Below, piece after piece: positions 28,484-40,048 of a stretch of 64,000 nt of DNA. Positions within the stretch are counted from its first letter, which is position 1, and each line of letters opens with the position of its first letter. A program made the translations under genes and the position numbers. Below the pieces are notes generated by a model that had not been told where the DNA came from, made no database searches, and saw only the letters and a list, made by a program, of their open reading frames with translations. The stretch comes from Candidatus Melainabacteria bacterium. Lineage in GTDB: Bacteria; Cyanobacteriota; Vampirovibrionia; 2-02-FULL-35-15. The stretch spans positions 4,084 through 68,083 of the forward strand of contig JAHFBE010000002.1 of the NCBI GenBank assembly GCA_023250205.1, read 5' to 3'.

Positions 28484-31090
28484 TTACTTACATTTAATCG
28501 TGTCATTTAGATCTATAGATCCATCATTTTTATTTGCACATGTAAGCTTTTTGCTATAGCAAGAAGCCAAATTGTCAGGATTTGAACATGTTGGGGTTAG
28601 TCCACGAGAACAAACTGCTTTATTGTTCTCTGTACATCTAGGAGTGCCTCTACTTGCCAGATCAAATGGACAGATGCATTTGCATGCTTGTTTATCTTCC
28701 CTGCAAGAATTAAAGCGTTTTCCTGATGGACAAAGTTTTTTAGTGTTGCAGGATGTGGTATCTTCGTCAGATGATCTGAGAATTCCAGTAGTGCAATATG
28801 CTGAGTTTACACTTAAAACTGTGCTACTTACATTCCTACATCCAGGACCAGATAAATCATTTACAAAACCTAATGATGAACCGCAGGTTGGGATGTTTGT
28901 GCTGCTGTTTGTGCAAAGAGGGGATCCAGTATTGCACATGATAGAGCCATTGGAACAGAATGGAGAAGCATTTGGAAGTGCGCAGAATTGAGAAATTTGA
29001 CCTGAACAATTTGGTCTTCCACGGCAGGGATCAATGACTACGCATACCTCACCATTTCTACATATAGCAGAACCACATTGAGCAGTTGAGCCACTGCTTG
29101 AGGATGAAGTAGCACATGGGTCAACTAAATAATTTATAAGAATACATTGATTGCCTAGGCAATTGTATTTTTGGTAAGTCATACCGCTTGGACATGTACC
29201 TATTGGACAATTGCTAGATACTGTACATGAAGGACCTCCACTTGAAGAACTTGTAGAACATGGAACAGGATTATTTGCAATGGCGAGAACACTGTTTTTT
29301 GCAGATTCAAGAGCAGTGAATACAGTATTTGAATCTGAGTTATTTATTCCAGGAACAGGTTGTAGCCCCTGGGTATTTGGATCATAATCATATTCTTGCC
29401 CAAGCCTAAGAGCTGTAAGCAGACCCTCATAATTAAAAACCTTTTCCAGATAAACATTAAAATTTGGATTAGTATCCAGGCAGATATTTATAGAAGAAAT
29501 AGAAGAGTAAAAGCTTTTAGATCTGTTTAAATCGTTCAGATAAAGTTTAACCTTAGCTATTTCTGCTTTTACAAGGTTTGGATCACTCAAGCCGTTTGGG
29601 TTTTGAAGAGTAGTTAGCCCAGAGACTGCACAGGAGAGAGTTTCCCCTGCAAATATTGCAGCTAAAAGATATTGTAAGTCACCAATTCTTATGTTTGCAA
29701 CAGTTATTTTTGTGTTGATTTCAGCAAGTCTGTCTACTATACTCATATTTACGGTGTATGGGCTTAGTGGAATTGGGACAATGGAGTATCTAATATTAGA
29801 AACAGGCTCTAGAGAGTCTGCATTCCCGGAGATATTTAATGTTCTGAATGATCCTTGGCATGGATTATTGATTGGAAATGAACAATCTATGTCACTTTGA
29901 AGTGCTTGAATTGTAAGCCTTTCCTGAGTTAGAACAGAGAACATATATGCAGAATTAGAAGCATTATTACCATAAACGCCAATACCTGAAACAGCTTGAA
30001 TCCCAGGAGTGCTTGGATCTGCATCAAATTCTTGTCCAAGATAAAGAGCACTTATTAACCCTTCAAGATTAACTATAAATCGTAGTTTAGTATTAAAAAA
30101 TATATTAGTAACTAAACAGAATTTAAAACTTGAGAAGCTTGTCCAGAAATCTCTTACATTTGTTATTAAACTTATATAAGAGTTTATTCCATTAATGGCA
30201 TTGGTAACTTCAGATAGGCTTGAATTATTAACCCCGGAAACTACACATGGTTTGGTTGTGTTGTTTATAATGGCATTTTTTAGATTTTCAAGAACAGTTT
30301 TTCTTTCATTTGCAATTGAAAGTTTTGTATTTGCTTCACTTACTCTGCTCTGAGGACTAAATGAGTTTGTGTATGGGGATAATGGAATTGGCACTAATGA
30401 ACAATTCCCTGGACAATTTAGTGTTCCACAGCCAGTCTGACAACCATTCTCATCTCTTGGAATATTTATATAAGTACAACTTGTTGGAGGAGCAGGGCAT
30501 GGTGGAGGATTACACTGACAACTTAACGTTCCACAGCCAGTCTGACAGCCATTCTCATCTCTTGGAATATTTATATAAGTGCAACCTGATGGTGGAGCAG
30601 GGCATGGCGGAGGGTTACATTGACAGCTCAATGTCCCACAGCCGGTTGGACAACCATTTATATCCTTTGGAATATTTATATAGGTACAGCCTGTTGGTGG
30701 AGCAGGGCATGATAAAATCGGACAAATAACTGGTTCGCAATATGCACATTGTGAGCAGGTTTGAGGAACAAGCTTATATCCAGGTTGGCATAGAGGTATT
30801 ACCTGAGGACATACAACACAATTACTCGTTGTACAAGTTACTGAACCGGGAAAAATAGAAAGAGAAGTTCGACAACTTGGCCCAAAAACATTACTACAAA
30901 TTACCTCGCCGCTTTTTCCTCCACTACAGATAGGAGTTCCACTAGGCACACAGGTTGGGATTCCGTTTGAACAGGAAACATCTGCTGAAAACACAGGGAT
31001 AAAGCCTTGAATTATAAAAACATAGAGGGTAGAAATTACTATTATTGATGACCTTAAATAATTAAGAATAAGATTCTTATTAAACTGCAT
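28484..31090 (-). CDS. Cys-rich secreted array protein (868 aa from the internal ATG; fifth in transcription order)
   Basis: The track ORF (28484..31324) overlaps the upstream gene. The ATG at 31090 has AGGAGGG 8 bp upstream and gives the signal-like N-terminus MQFNKNLILNYLRSSIIVISTLYVFIIQGFIPVFSA. The protein contains 3 repeats of 35 aa, 2 repeats of about 150 aa, and a C-terminal 18-Cys module. Confidence 0.7.
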   Translation of the reverse strand: MQFNKNLILNYLRSSIIVISTLYVFIIQGFIPVFSADVSCSNGIPTCVPSGTPICSGGKSGEVICSNVFGPSCRTSLSIFPGSVTCTTSNCVVCPQVIPLCQPGYKLVPQTCSQCAYCEPVICPILSCPAPPTGCTYINIPKDINGCPTGCGTLSCQCNPPPCPAPPSGCTYINIPRDENGCQTGCGTLSCQCNPPPCPAPPTSCTYINIPRDENGCQTGCGTLNCPGNCSLVPIPLSPYTNSFSPQSRVSEANTKLSIANERKTVLENLKNAIINNTTKPCVVSGVNNSSLSEVTNAINGINSYISLITNVRDFWTSFSSFKFCLVTNIFFNTKLRFIVNLEGLISALYLGQEFDADPSTPGIQAVSGIGVYGNNASNSAYMFSVLTQERLTIQALQSDIDCSFPINNPCQGSFRTLNISGNADSLEPVSNIRYSIVPIPLSPYTVNMSIVDRLAEINTKITVANIRIGDLQYLLAAIFAGETLSCAVSGLTTLQNPNGLSDPNLVKAEIAKVKLYLNDLNRSKSFYSSISSINICLDTNPNFNVYLEKVFNYEGLLTALRLGQEYDYDPNTQGLQPVPGINNSDSNTVFTALESAKNSVLAIANNPVPCSTSSSSGGPSCTVSSNCPIGTCPSGMTYQKYNCLGNQCILINYLVDPCATSSSSSGSTAQCGSAICRNGEVCVVIDPCRGRPNCSGQISQFCALPNASPFCSNGSIMCNTGSPLCTNSSTNIPTCGSSLGFVNDLSGPGCRNVSSTVLSVNSAYCTTGILRSSDEDTTSCNTKKLCPSGKRFNSCREDKQACKCICPFDLASRGTPRCTENNKAVCSRGLTPTCSNPDNLASCYSKKLTCANKNDGSIDLNDTIKCK
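30410..30711 (-). repeat. 3 x 105-bp coding tandem repeat
   Basis: Encodes CPAPP[TS][GS]CTYINIP[KR]D[IE]NGC[PQ]TGCGTL[SN]C(QCNPPP), three times. Confidence 0.8.
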
Positions 31091-31229
31091 ACTACACCCT
31101 CCTGTACTTGCAATAAATTTTTGTTGATATTTTTTAACTAATGGATTAGAACAAATGTTTCTTAAGAAAACTTTAAAGTAGACATTAAAATAAATTAATG
31201 TTGTGAAATTAATGGTTAGTACTAAATTT

Positions 31230-38385: not shown

Positions 38386-38647
38386 GTTTGATATATCCTT
38401 CTTAAATAGTGGGTTTTATATAATTCCTACTAAAAAATAAGCTCTTTAGTAGGTGCCGATTATTGTACTGCAATGCAAAAAGGATGACATTAAATTTTTT
38501 TAATGTGAAAAAATCTAAAAAAATCTTTAAGAGGGAAGACTCAATTACTTTTAAAATTTAGTTGTTTATAAACGATTTGTTTCAAATTAATGTTGAAATA
38601 TAAACGAAATTTGAATTATAAAAAGATCTTTAAGGTCATTCCTTGGT

Positions 38648-40048
38648 CTATTTTTTCTTGCAGGAAATGATGTCTACTAAGTCAATTGCACCGGTATCTC
38701 TGTCTCTGCAAATGAGCTTCCCGTCTAAACAAACAGGGATGTTTGATGATTTTGAACAGGCCGGCCGAGTACTGTTTGAACATGCGACAGTGTTATTAAT
38801 ATCACAGTGAGGAGTTACTTTTTGCTTCTTTGTCTCAAATTGGCAAACACACTTGCATGAAGCTTTATCTTCTCTGCATGATTTAAATCTTCCTCTTTCT
38901 GCTGGACATAAGTTACCTTCTTTTTTACAAGAATTTACTTGTTTAATTGGAGTGAATATTCTTTGAGCAGGAGTACAGCTTACGGAGTTTACTAGGAATA
39001 AGGTCATAGATGGAGTGATACAACCTTGTCCAGAGAACTGACCAAGTAATCCATAGTTTGATCCACAGTCAGGAATTAATCCTGAAGGGCAGGTTGGAGT
39101 TCCTGAATCACACATGATTTGTCCGCCAGAACAATATGGGACAAGACTTCCAGAAGATGAAGATGAGCTAGAACTTCCCCCACTTGAGGATGATGTAGAA
39201 GATGTACTTGAAGTACCACAGAAACCTTGACCACCGTAACAGCTTAAACCATAGCTACAACCAGCTTCATCAGAAAATTGAATACAGCATGGAGCAGCAC
39301 CAGAAGGACAGATGTAATTTTGACCGGAAGGACAATCAGGAGTAGTATCACCACCGCACATAGTTACGCCACCAGTAGTAGAAGAAGTTGAGGAAGTAGT
39401 AGAAGTGCCACAGAAACCTCTGGCACCATAACAGCTAAGACCAGTGCTACAGCCAGCTTCATCAGAAAATTGAATACAACAAGGAGCTTGACCAGAAGGA
39501 CAGATGTAATTTTGACCGGAAGGACAATCAGGAGTATTGTCACCGCCACACATGGTTACGCCACCAGTAGTAGAAGAAGTTGAGGAAGTAGTAGAAGTAC
39601 CACAGAAACCTTGACCACCGTAACAGCTTAAACCATAGCTACAACCAGCTTCATCAGAAAATTGAATACAGCATGGAGCAGCACCAGAAGGGCAAATGTA
39701 ATTTTGACCGGAAGGACAATCAGGAGTAGTATCACCGCCACACATAGTTACGCCACCAGTAGTAGAAGAAGTTGAGGAAGTAGTAGAAGTAGTCCCACAG
39801 TAACCTACTCCACCATAACAACTTAGTCCATTACTGCAACCAGACTCATCAGAGAATAAACAGCAGGGAGCTTGACCGGAAGGGCAAATATAATTTTGAC
39901 CAGAAGGACAAACTGGTTGTCCATTAGAACAAGATGCATCTGAATTAATTGGAATAAAAAATTGAAAAAATAAAATTACTAAAATTAAAGAGAAGTTTAT
40001 TAGTGTCTTTAAGAATCCTATTAGATTTTTATTGTTTCTGATTTTCAT
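38648..40048 (-). CDS. Cys-rich secreted array protein (466 aa; first)
   Basis: Signal-like N-terminus and four tandem 64-aa repeats (CPSGQNYICPSG.APCCIQFSDEAGCS.GLSCYG..GFCGT + Ser/Thr linker). The C-terminal 18-Cys module is shared with the 868-aa protein. I hand-counted about 50 Cys in 466 aa. Confidence 0.72.
   Translation of the reverse strand: MKIRNNKNLIGFLKTLINFSLILVILFFQFFIPINSDASCSNGQPVCPSGQNYICPSGQAPCCLFSDESGCSNGLSCYGGVGYCGTTSTTSSTSSTTGGVTMCGGDTTPDCPSGQNYICPSGAAPCCIQFSDEAGCSYGLSCYGGQGFCGTSTTSSTSSTTGGVTMCGGDNTPDCPSGQNYICPSGQAPCCIQFSDEAGCSTGLSCYGARGFCGTSTTSSTSSTTGGVTMCGGDTTPDCPSGQNYICPSGAAPCCIQFSDEAGCSYGLSCYGGQGFCGTSSTSSTSSSSGGSSSSSSSSGSLVPYCSGGQIMCDSGTPTCPSGLIPDCGSNYGLLGQFSGQGCITPSMTLFLVNSVSCTPAQRIFTPIKQVNSCKKEGNLCPAERGRFKSCREDKASCKCVCQFETKKQKVTPHCDINNTVACSNSTRPACSKSSNIPVCLDGKLICRDRDTGAIDLVDIISCKKK
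39143..39910 (-). repeat. 4 x 192-bp coding tandem repeat
   Basis: 64-aa units start at Cys47, Cys111, Cys175 and Cys239 of the 466-aa protein. Units 2 and 4 are nearly identical. Confidence 0.85.

Follow-up and report, generated by a model that had tools for sequence, protein, structure and literature searches.

The locus raises the question of what five consecutive minus-strand genes rich in cysteine encode in one of the Melainabacteria, an uncultured relative of cyanobacteria that has flagella and makes LPS. Within the window (the whole stretch of 64,000 nucleotides that was analysed), these genes, here G1 to G5, occupy positions 28484-40048, and a first-pass annotation had described them as a paralogous array assembled from reused modules. 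All five ORFs were found where it had placed them, with the expected lengths (Table 1). For G5, the mechanical ORF start is a TTG at 31324, and the ATG start is favoured by homologue alignment.

Modules and architecture of the array

From G1 to G5, the products contain 50, 36, 34, 24 and 68 Cys, every count being even, equivalent to 10.7, 4.0, 4.8, 4.3 and 7.8% of residues. The window has 36 other ORFs of 150 aa or more; these contain 0-3% Cys, mostly ~1%, and against this background the enrichment of the array is real. The earlier count of about 50 Cys in the 466-aa protein was correct; the figure of roughly 10% Cys holds for G1 but not for the other four (4.0-7.8%).

Using HMMs built from these modules, plus a pattern search, we reproduced the module map. 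The 8-Cys module a occurs once in G2, once in G3 and three times in G4 (HMM and pattern), and the ~50-aa, 6-Cys module b in four copies each in G2 and G3. Module c (~250 aa), itself without Cys, is confined to G2, G3 and G4, and the C-terminal module d (~165 aa, 18 Cys) to G1 and G5, the first and last genes of the array. In alignments, the number of invariant Cys per module is even (a, 8; b, 6; d, 18). Laminin_G_3 (LamG, PF13385; E = 6.8e-25, 88.4 bits vs a cutoff of 27.6) is present only in G2, where it is flanked by two conserved Cys, and the longest Ser/Gly/Thr run, of 119 aa, is in G3. The placements of a to d agree with the first-pass annotation, as do a LamG domain in a single member and linkers of up to ~119 aa.

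The architectures hold further repeats. G1 carries 64-aa units with the pattern C-x7-C-x7-C-x6-CC-x8-C-x5-C-x6-C, encoded by a DNA tandem repeat of 192-nt period (3.7 copies, 86% matches); this unit has no match in Pfam and is a type separate from the modules first described. The Cys-rich N-terminal region of G5 contains three 35-aa 6-Cys repeats (105-nt DNA period), and a ~190-aa domain occurs twice in the same protein with 40% identity. CC and CxC motifs occur in G1, G5 and module d. The DNA of the G3 linker consists of a 69-nt unit in 5 copies (90% matches), and Ser codons over the whole G3 gene are a mixture of TCN and AGY.

Each of the five N-termini contains 2-4 Lys/Arg but lacks Asp/Glu. 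Each also has a hydrophobic core, with a Kyte-Doolittle value of 2.75 or more over 12 residues, followed downstream by (-3,-1) sites with small residues. These properties fit the signal-like N-terminus claimed for each protein, and the N-termini read as tripartite and signal-peptide-like. In G2 and G3, a conserved A-x-A|Q site lies ~25 residues past the hydrophobic core, a spacing atypical of signal peptidase I, so both proteins could be signal-anchored instead.

Table 1. Array genes, mapped modules and flanking genes (window positions).
Feature	Position	Strand	Details
G1	38648-40048	-	466 aa, 50 Cys; signal-like N-terminus, 4x 64-aa 8-Cys unit, Ser linker, d
G1 8-Cys units	39209..39934	-	residues 39-280; four tandem copies, Thr/Ser linkers between
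G1 module d	38651..39148	-	residues 301-466, 18 Cys; alignment; HMM E = 2.3e-80
G2	35716-38385	-	889 aa; signal-like N-terminus, a, 4x b, polySer, LamG, c
G2 module a	38041..38211	-	residues 59-115, 8 Cys
G2 module b, x4 tandem	37369..37968	-	residues 140-339; HMM domain E 1e-22 to 5e-24; alignment
G2 LamG/concanavalin-A-like domain	36556..36996	-	residues 464-610; PF13385
G2 module c	35719..36474	-	residues 638-889; HMM E = 3e-119; alignment
G3	33091-35235	-	714 aa; signal-like N-terminus, a, 4x b, 119-aa Ser/Gly tract, c
G3 polySer/Gly linker	33859..34215	-	residues 341-459
G3 module c	33094..33840	-	residues 466-714; HMM E = 4.3e-118
G4	31230-32909	-	559 aa; signal-like N-terminus, polySer, a, a, c, a
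G4 module c	31458..32213	-	residues 233-484; two beta-sandwich domains predicted
G5	28484-31090	-	868 aa from ATG; signal-like N-terminus, Cys-rich N-terminal region, 2x ~190-aa orphan domain, Cys-rich stretch, d
G5 module d	28487..28975	-	residues 706-868; HMM E = 1.7e-75
lpxI	27668..28480	+	flank, convergent with G5; PF06230/PF17930
flgF/flgG-like rod genes	40647..42112	+	divergent from G1; Pfam

Folds, relatives and duplication history

Searches of G1-G5 against Pfam and NCBIfam (E up to 1) returned nothing except LamG, and PDB sequence searches with the array proteins or modules nothing better than E ~1, in line with the earlier claim that the other modules belong to no named family; by these searches they appear undescribed. 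Isolated modules gave no hevein/CBM18, EGF, granulin or Kazal match in Pfam at E up to 10, no Pfam Ig-like family was significant on module c, and no anchoring motif or hydrophobic tail could be recognised in c or d, nor did either match a known sorting domain in Pfam/NCBIfam. An AlphaFold model of G4 residues 93-559 (43 sequences, mean pLDDT 88.4) confidently predicts module a as a small compact all-beta domain (pLDDT ~86-94) and module c as two beta-sandwiches (pLDDT 93-98 over most of the module). Foldseek with module c retrieved tandem Ig domains of cell-surface proteins (E ~1e-6), which are generic matches with low TM-scores.

An exhaustive HMM search of 1.84 billion proteins with module c as query yielded 66 representative proteins; among species-representative genomes, three MAGs have the module, two of them from Melainabacteria and one labelled Gammaproteobacteria. 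The family is real, conserved and very rare. Syntenic arrays with the same architectures are present in independent assemblies (L002/L007, L003, L005, L009), which makes chimeric assembly unlikely, and G4 is 56% identical to its L009 counterpart over the full length. In nearly all complete members, module c lies at or near the C-terminus, behind N-terminal regions that vary from two a modules to LamG, an M10-like protease with CarboxypepD_reg, or Asp-rich repeats; the pairing of LamG with c recurs in P0009, P0020, P0064, L003 and L009, and some relatives consist of a signal peptide and module c alone. The c profile also weakly touches HYR-repeat proteins (P0069). Module d is C-terminal in all copies seen. 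In the L009 counterpart of G5, the N-terminus and d are kept and the ~600 aa between them are replaced, next to an lpxI that is 77% identical. Kazal-like repeats can be seen by eye in this counterpart; Pfam finds no Kazal domain there. Modules do vary among related genomes, in both N-terminal cargo and gene number, and the description of the family as rapidly evolving is apt for module content, as this G5 counterpart sharing only both ends illustrates, but not for module a itself. The neighbourhoods of the arrays hold no conserved secretion, sortase-like or glycosylation gene.

Amino-acid identity between G2 and G3 had been taken as a sign of recent duplication or gene conversion. However, the two genes are only 74.7% identical in DNA over 1.16 kb, and within a 41-residue near-identical peptide 13 of 123 nt differ; of the 12 codons affected, 11 are synonymous. 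The stretch is also conserved in another genome (L002). Recent duplication or conversion is not supported by these data, and the peptide identity reflects purifying selection on an old duplication.

A possible surface role and its alternatives

These sequences are most reasonably read as encoding exported, disulfide-bonded proteins with an extracellular or surface role. We suggest that the array encodes modular proteins of a lineage-specific family, exported by Sec and stabilised by disulfides. Each protein would have three parts: a signal peptide, variable small 'display' modules and, joined through Ser-rich spacers, a conserved C-terminal module that is either c (two Ig-like beta-sandwiches) or d (18 Cys). 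The display modules would be the 8-Cys a, 6-Cys b, G1-type 8-Cys units and the lectin-like LamG domain in the window; relatives elsewhere have other Cys-rich units or an M10-like metalloprotease in this place. After export, the Cys modules would fold into disulfide-bonded knots; the polyserine tracts would act as extended stalks that may be modified, a role they have in secreted modular enzymes of other bacteria; the N-terminal modules may bind external ligands in adhesion or glycan recognition; and c and d would serve as handles shared by the family, keeping the proteins at the cell surface or assembling them into an extracellular layer. Disulfide bonding, localisation, anchoring and binding are what we infer, and we put the specific picture of lineage-specific binding proteins on polyserine stalks with c and d as anchoring or assembly handles at about an even chance. 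Even Cys totals, even invariant Cys per module and signal-like N-termini argue for export and oxidation; the polySer linkers, the LamG lectin fold and the Ig-like predicted c support an extracellular character. The C-terminal position of c behind diverse N-terminal regions suggests a common handle, and the retention of a consistently C-terminal d in L009, while the middle was replaced, suggests a second. Several observations speak against this picture: c and d lack a known anchor or sorting domain, no export or glycosylation gene is conserved beside the arrays, G2 and G3 could be signal-anchored, and the Ig matches are generic. G4-type proteins have an extra module a after c, so c is not a strict C-terminal signal, and since stand-alone proteins of signal peptide and c exist, the function may reside in c itself, which would then not be a handle.

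The proteins might instead make up a structural layer of the envelope or a coat, cross-linked by disulfides, that gives rigidity or protection, not adhesion, and is comparable in function to the cysteine-rich outer-membrane complex (OMC) of chlamydiae or to cystine-rich spore and cyst coats. This we consider unlikely: the Cys content reaches 10.7%, there are several paralogues, abundant stand-alone module c proteins could form a lattice, and in three assemblies, namely the window, L003 and L009, lpxI, an LPS gene, lies next to the array, but even, invariant Cys within modules fit intramolecular knots better than free Cys for intermolecular cross-links, module c has no Cys at all, LamG and protease cargoes suggest interaction or enzymatic roles, and Pfam/NCBIfam gave no match to the chlamydial OMC or any coat family. 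Equally improbable in our view are freely secreted knottin- or inhibitor-like effectors or toxins, not retained by the cell, whose targets would be prey, hosts or competitors. The small disulfide-rich modules are of a kind typical for toxins and inhibitors, relatives put a metalloprotease on the same scaffold, the L009 G5 counterpart has its Kazal-like repeats by eye, and Vampirovibrio, a cultured member of the same group, is a predator (PMC4451040). However, Pfam detects no Kazal or toxin domain, long polySer stalks and a tandem Ig-like module would sooner be expected in surface proteins that are tethered or multivalent, and there is no sign of predation by this lineage.

The divergent orientation of the array to the rod operon, with flgF/flgG adjacency kept in the window and L005, could point to flagellar accessory parts such as a sheath, basal disk or periplasmic scaffold. 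This is very improbable, given that no flagellar domain was detected (Pfam/NCBIfam), that module content and gene number vary between genomes at the same position, unlike structural flagellar parts, that module c also occurs away from flagellar genes (e.g., on the L004 protease), and that the array in L002 is followed by unrelated housekeeping genes; inherited synteny among close relatives explains the adjacency most simply. We give similarly little credence to metallothionein-like metal binding or redox buffering by Cys-rich modules that are not disulfide-bonded. Cys density and the CC and CxC motifs would suit such a function, but the signal-like N-termini imply an oxidising compartment, Cys counts are even, the Cys keep a conserved spacing, between them stand conserved Gly, Pro and aromatic residues, and module a is predicted to be compact and all-beta.

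Comparison with known systems

In export, predicted here from sequence, and in unusually high Cys content, the array brings to mind chlamydial OmcA/OmcB, which are exported, unusually Cys-rich envelope proteins. It differs from them in lacking sequence similarity (no Pfam or NCBIfam hit) and in being modular and polySer-linked, with Cys in small repeated knots. Such modules resemble the eukaryotic hevein/CBM18, EGF, granulin and Kazal domains (~35-65 aa, 6-8 invariant Cys, beta-hairpin rich, tandem, Ser/Thr-rich linkers), but differ in Cys spacing and have no Pfam or PDB sequence match. Polyserine linkers have been described in the secreted multi-module carbohydrases of Saccharophagus and Cellvibrio (PMC2386152), and the array shares with the PSL proteins of S. 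degradans and C. japonicus a signal peptide, small modules, long Ser tracts and the extracellular, Gram-negative setting (PMC2386152). However, the modules of PSL proteins are recognised glycoside hydrolases and CBMs, and searches of the array in Pfam/NCBIfam detected no catalytic or CBM family; Cys is far more abundant in the array modules, and the PSL hosts are gammaproteobacterial polysaccharide degraders, not relatives of Melainabacteria. The best structural matches of module c, tandem Ig domains, recall Big, IPT/TIG or HYR-type tandem Ig-like adhesins, but c is a fixed two-domain unit present once per protein, not a long repeat array, and has its own signature, GSNPSFE ... STPxGIxSK. Finally, residues 464-610 of G2 are a clear member of the secreted bacterial Laminin_G_3 (PF13385) proteins, and with LamG in one of the five array genes, this domain is interchangeable cargo and not the part that defines the family.

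Modular composition of the array

Five consecutive minus-strand genes, G1-G5, lie between lpxI on one side and a divergent flagellar rod/basal-body operon on the other (Table). The first-pass annotation described them as an array built of reused modules, an observation confirmed by the open reading frames, the Cys counts and HMMs that we built from the module alignments and scanned against the window. Modules a-d are confined, within the window, to these five genes. Module a (about 56 aa, eight invariant Cys) occurs once in G2, once in G3 and three times in G4; module b (about 50 aa, six invariant Cys) is repeated four times in tandem in each of G2 and G3; module c (about 250 aa, without Cys) is found in G2, G3 and G4; and module d, with 18 invariant Cys in about 165 aa, ends G1 and G5. 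G1 also carries four tandem 64-aa 8-Cys units with a Cys spacing of their own (192-nt period), and G5 three 35-aa 6-Cys units and an orphan domain present twice (about 190 aa each, 40% identical to each other). Profile-profile comparison paired the N-terminal half of module a with that of b (probability 62%) and with a segment of d (91%); a hairpin unit, C-x6-C-x7-C-x8-C, is suggested as common to a, b and part of d, a partial relation and not full homology.

Array genes and other features with coordinates, in the window or in related loci of other assemblies (L004, L009)
Feature	Locus	Position	Strand	Remarks
Sulfotransferase gene	window	5434-6390	minus	
194-aa ORF	window	10363-10947	plus	
459-aa orphan ORF	window	26273-27652	plus	between cytochrome c peroxidase gene and lpxI
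lpxI	window	27668-28480	plus	flanks the array
G5	window	28484-31090	minus	868 aa; 68 Cys (7.8%)
G5 N-terminus	window	about 30980-31090	minus	conserved motif
G4	window	31230-32909	minus	559 aa; 24 Cys (4.3%)
Terminator-like hairpin	window	33018-33045	minus	directly 3' of G3; strong; 12-bp stem, T-rich tail
G3	window	33091-35235	minus	714 aa; 34 Cys (4.8%)
Terminator-like hairpin	window	35665-35694	minus	directly 3' of G2; strong; 12-bp stem, T-rich tail
G2	window	35716-38385	minus	889 aa; 36 Cys (4.0%)
G2 Cys 625	window	about 36511-36513	minus	C-terminal of LamG
G2 Cys 454	window	about 37024-37026	minus	N-terminal of LamG
G1	window	38648-40048	minus	466 aa; 50 Cys (10.7%)
G1 N-terminus	window	39935-40048	minus	conserved motif
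flgF/flgG-like genes	window	40647 and 41297		start of flagellar operon; then further rod gene, SLT transglycosylase, fliF, fliH
Sulfotransferase gene	window	49327-50259	plus	PF13469/PF00685
1715-aa ORF	window	58398-63545	minus	
G5 positional counterpart	L009	3893-5590		beside lpxI
380-aa orphan ORF	L009	6443-7585		
Sulfotransferase gene	L004	17255-18184		

All five Cys totals are even, and within the aligned Cys modules the Cys numbers are both even and invariant. The 36 other window ORFs of at least 150 aa contain 0-3% Cys, mostly about 1%. G+C is about 34% across the whole window, and the array shows no compositional break. For G5, the stated length takes the ATG at 31090 as the start, a choice backed by alignment with the N-terminus of a homologue.

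The strong hairpins directly 3' of G2 and G3, together with gaps of 139-480 bp between the array genes, suggest separate transcription units and not one operon. The promoter scan gave a count not above chance, and an Rfam scan found no RNA families in the window.

Runs of Ser, Gly and Thr separate modules in G2 (51 aa), G3 (119 aa, the longest) and G4 (23 aa), and over the whole genes Ser is encoded by a mixture of TCN and AGY codons. The G3 tract is encoded by five copies of a 69-nt unit with 90% matches, so the length of this tract is the sole feature that assembly could have distorted, and how long the repetitive Ser tracts are exactly is uncertain. Elsewhere in the window, a 194-aa ORF without Cys or a Pfam match is 20% Ser and has a Gly/Ser-rich start. 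The window also holds two sulfotransferase paralogues, of which the plus-strand copy was the one scanned against Pfam; at L004, a sulfotransferase 52% identical to one in the window lies 6.6 kb from a module-c metalloprotease gene. These enzymes may be linked to a modification of the Ser tracts.

Signal-peptide-like features mark all five N-termini: Lys/Arg in the n-region, a hydrophobic core as h-region and small residues at (-3,-1) in the c-region. At the end of the hydrophobic core, G1 and G5 share a conserved [LF][IVL]Q.[FY][IL]P[LIV].S, which recurs in loci L005 and L009 and in homologues P0007, P0010, P0011 and P0017. G2, G3 and their relatives have LLN[IL]xVL..FNFNFxNLF instead, followed about 25 residues on by a conserved AxA|Q site that is unusually distant from the core. 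These motifs may constitute a lineage-specific export or sorting signal. Elsewhere in the window, a large orphan of 1715 aa, also predicted to be exported, combines a signal-like N-terminus with 3.0% Cys and is matched by no Pfam family.

Family searches and predicted fold

Laminin_G_3 (PF13385) is matched by G2 residues 464-610 (88.4 bits against a cutoff of 27.6, E = 6.8e-25) and in no other array protein; LamG is a lectin fold. Two conserved Cys, at residues 454 and 625 (NTMC ... NxxC), bracket this domain in G2, as in P0009, L003 and L009, and probably form a disulfide that would clamp its N- and C-termini together. Apart from LamG, Pfam and NCBIfam matched none of the modules (a-d, the G1 and G5 repeats and the 190-aa G5 domain): there was no hit in whole G1-G5 at E up to 1, in the modules of G1 and G5 taken singly at E up to 10, or in homologues from other loci, upholding the earlier statement that the modules belong to no named family. 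Profile and sequence searches of all PDB chains reached at best E of about 1. Searches of the Melainabacteria literature for cysteine-rich or adhesin proteins turned up no account of this family, which is likewise absent from the two foundational genome papers.

An AlphaFold2 model of G4 residues 93-559, computed from a 43-sequence alignment, reached a mean pLDDT of 88.4; a model from a 6-sequence alignment (pLDDT 51) was discarded. In the retained model, the copies of module a fold as compact all-beta domains made up of short hairpins (block-mean pLDDT about 74-94), and module c is all-beta, with two beta-sandwich domains at pLDDT 93-98 over most of its length. Foldseek, queried with the whole G4 model against the PDB, returned mostly generic Ig matches to module c and none assignable to module a; the top ones, at E = 4e-6 to 1e-4 and with low TM-scores, were tandem Ig domains of cell-surface proteins (nectin, NCAM, CD155). 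These matches support placing module c in the Ig-like fold class but no closer assignment. Ig-like modules in tandem are a typical trait of surface proteins.

Distribution and history of the family

Word-indexed searches of 5.8 billion proteins recovered one relative for module c, three for d and two for the a+b region, none with a Pfam domain or a name, a result informative on rarity but not on function. An exhaustive HMMER search of 1.84 billion cluster representatives with the module-c profile returned 66 proteins at E up to 1e-3 and 58 at E up to 1e-10; at least three weak matches (P0059, P0069, P0072) are unrelated repeat proteins, P0069 consisting of HYR repeats. Among 185,579 species-representative genomes, module c occurs in three: the Candidatus Melainabacteria MAGs RIFCSPLOWO2_02_FULL_35_15 and nzgw190, and one MAG labelled uncultured Gammaproteobacteria. 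The last of these, locus L004 (CAZRTB010000001.1), bears module c on a metalloprotease and also the sulfotransferase 52% identical to one in the window, so that either a mistaken label or gene transfer may be involved. The LpxI of the window shares 77% identity with its counterpart on a metagenome contig whose synteny is the same; the window therefore very probably stems from this Melainabacteria lineage, and the group is known to have flagella and a Gram-negative envelope (PMC3787301).

Comparison with related genomes revealed variation in both gene content and modules. L002/L007 has G1-like, G2-like (without LamG), G3-like and G4-like genes in the order of the window, and at L003 and L009 a LamG-Cys-module-c protein and a module-d protein adjoin lpxI. 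At L005, five family genes are divergent from flgF/flgG; one has module c, and module d, complete or partial, closes the remaining four, among them a protein that is a signal peptide and d only. G4 is 56% identical to its L009 counterpart over the full length, whereas G5 and the L009 gene at the same position have only the first 89 or so residues and module d in common, the roughly 600 aa between having been replaced. By eye, this L009 gene encodes three Kazal-inhibitor-like repeats (CPLCG..G..C.C..TYC..C.A...G..C), an identity unsupported by any Pfam match. A 380-aa orphan ORF at L009 holds the same position as the 459-aa orphan of the window, itself without a Pfam match. Because independent assemblies recover the same architectures, we judge assembly chimeras unlikely.

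Across complete module-c proteins, c nearly always stands at the C-terminus or is followed by just one more module a, and module d is C-terminal in every copy observed. The regions N-terminal to module c vary: two a modules are the commonest, and others are a with b repeats, LamG, an M10-like metalloprotease with CarboxypepD_reg, Asp-rich repeats, other Cys-rich units or a signal peptide alone.

The first-pass annotation took the likeness of G2 and G3 for recent duplication or gene conversion, which the DNA contradicts. The two genes are 74.7% identical over 1.16 kb, and the 41-residue stretch seen as identical differs at 13 of 123 nucleotides, synonymously in 11 of the 12 differing codons; the same peptide is kept in another genome. 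The synonymous differences rule out gene conversion, and the likeness reflects purifying selection on an old duplication.

Interpretation and comparison with known systems

The best-supported reading is that the family comprises lineage-specific exported, disulfide-stabilised modular proteins, predicted to act outside the cytoplasm; the surface- or adhesin-type function proposed earlier from sequence is plausible. Two conserved C-terminal modules behind freely exchanged N-terminal modules suggest that c and d would anchor or assemble the proteins as shared handles and that the N-terminal modules would be displayed as binders, a proposal that we consider evenly balanced between true and false. 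Rather unlikely is a more specific version, in which c and d would be the recognition or anchoring domains of an undescribed surface display or assembly system confined to the Melainabacteria lineage, stand-alone c proteins would serve as scaffold, and Cys-knot, LamG and protease paralogues would be displayed on polyserine stalks; the logic would be analogous to that of T9SS C-terminal domains or S-layer anchoring modules.

That the proteins form a cross-linked structural coat is unlikely, and we assign the same low probability to their being free effectors or inhibitors. The genomic setting might suggest flagellar accessories. However, G1-G5 contain no flagellar family domain by Pfam or NCBIfam, although the neighbouring genes do, and the position beside the flagellar operon and lpxI has the look of inherited synteny; module c is also found away from this setting, and the genes after the array differ at L002. 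We regard a flagellar role as very improbable, and equally remote is metal binding by the Cys modules.

To our knowledge, the non-photosynthetic relatives of cyanobacteria are almost wholly uncultured, and their dealings with surfaces, hosts and prey uncharacterised. The array defines at least four undescribed domains (the 8-Cys all-beta module, the 6-Cys repeat, the 18-Cys C-terminal domain and the tandem Ig-like C-terminal domain), which are confined to the lineage and freely recombined even at orthologous positions. If c and d are indeed anchoring or assembly handles, they would mark the surface proteome of the lineage and offer a route to its adhesins and secreted enzymes. Among bacterial proteins, 8-11% Cys arranged in small knots of eukaryotic type is, as far as we know, uncommon; such proteins would lend themselves to the study of oxidative folding in the periplasm of a cyanobacterial relative. 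For now, the practical importance is modest.

In Saccharophagus and Cellvibrio, secreted enzymes of several modules are characterised by polyserine linkers (PMC2386152). G2-G4 resemble these carbohydrases in the long Ser tracts between modules and in their signal-like N-termini; unlike them, G1-G5 have no glycoside hydrolase, lyase or recognised CBM module (Pfam, NCBIfam). Module c resembles Ig-like surface domains in its predicted beta-sandwiches and tandem-Ig Foldseek matches, but Pfam assigns its sequence to no named Ig-like family (Big_x, TIG, HYR, fn3), and its profile touches one HYR-repeat protein weakly. Type V autotransporters end in a 12-strand barrel, whereas module c is predicted to form two sandwiches and in G4 is followed by a further module, and no autotransporter domain was matched in G1-G5 by Pfam. 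The C-termini likewise gave no match to the T9SS sorting domain or other known sorting tags (Por_Secre_tail, PEP-CTERM and LPXTG models; Pfam and NCBIfam). The domains of the array are new as a set, but the kind of protein is familiar: modular, secreted or at the surface, with Ser linkers and Ig-like modules.
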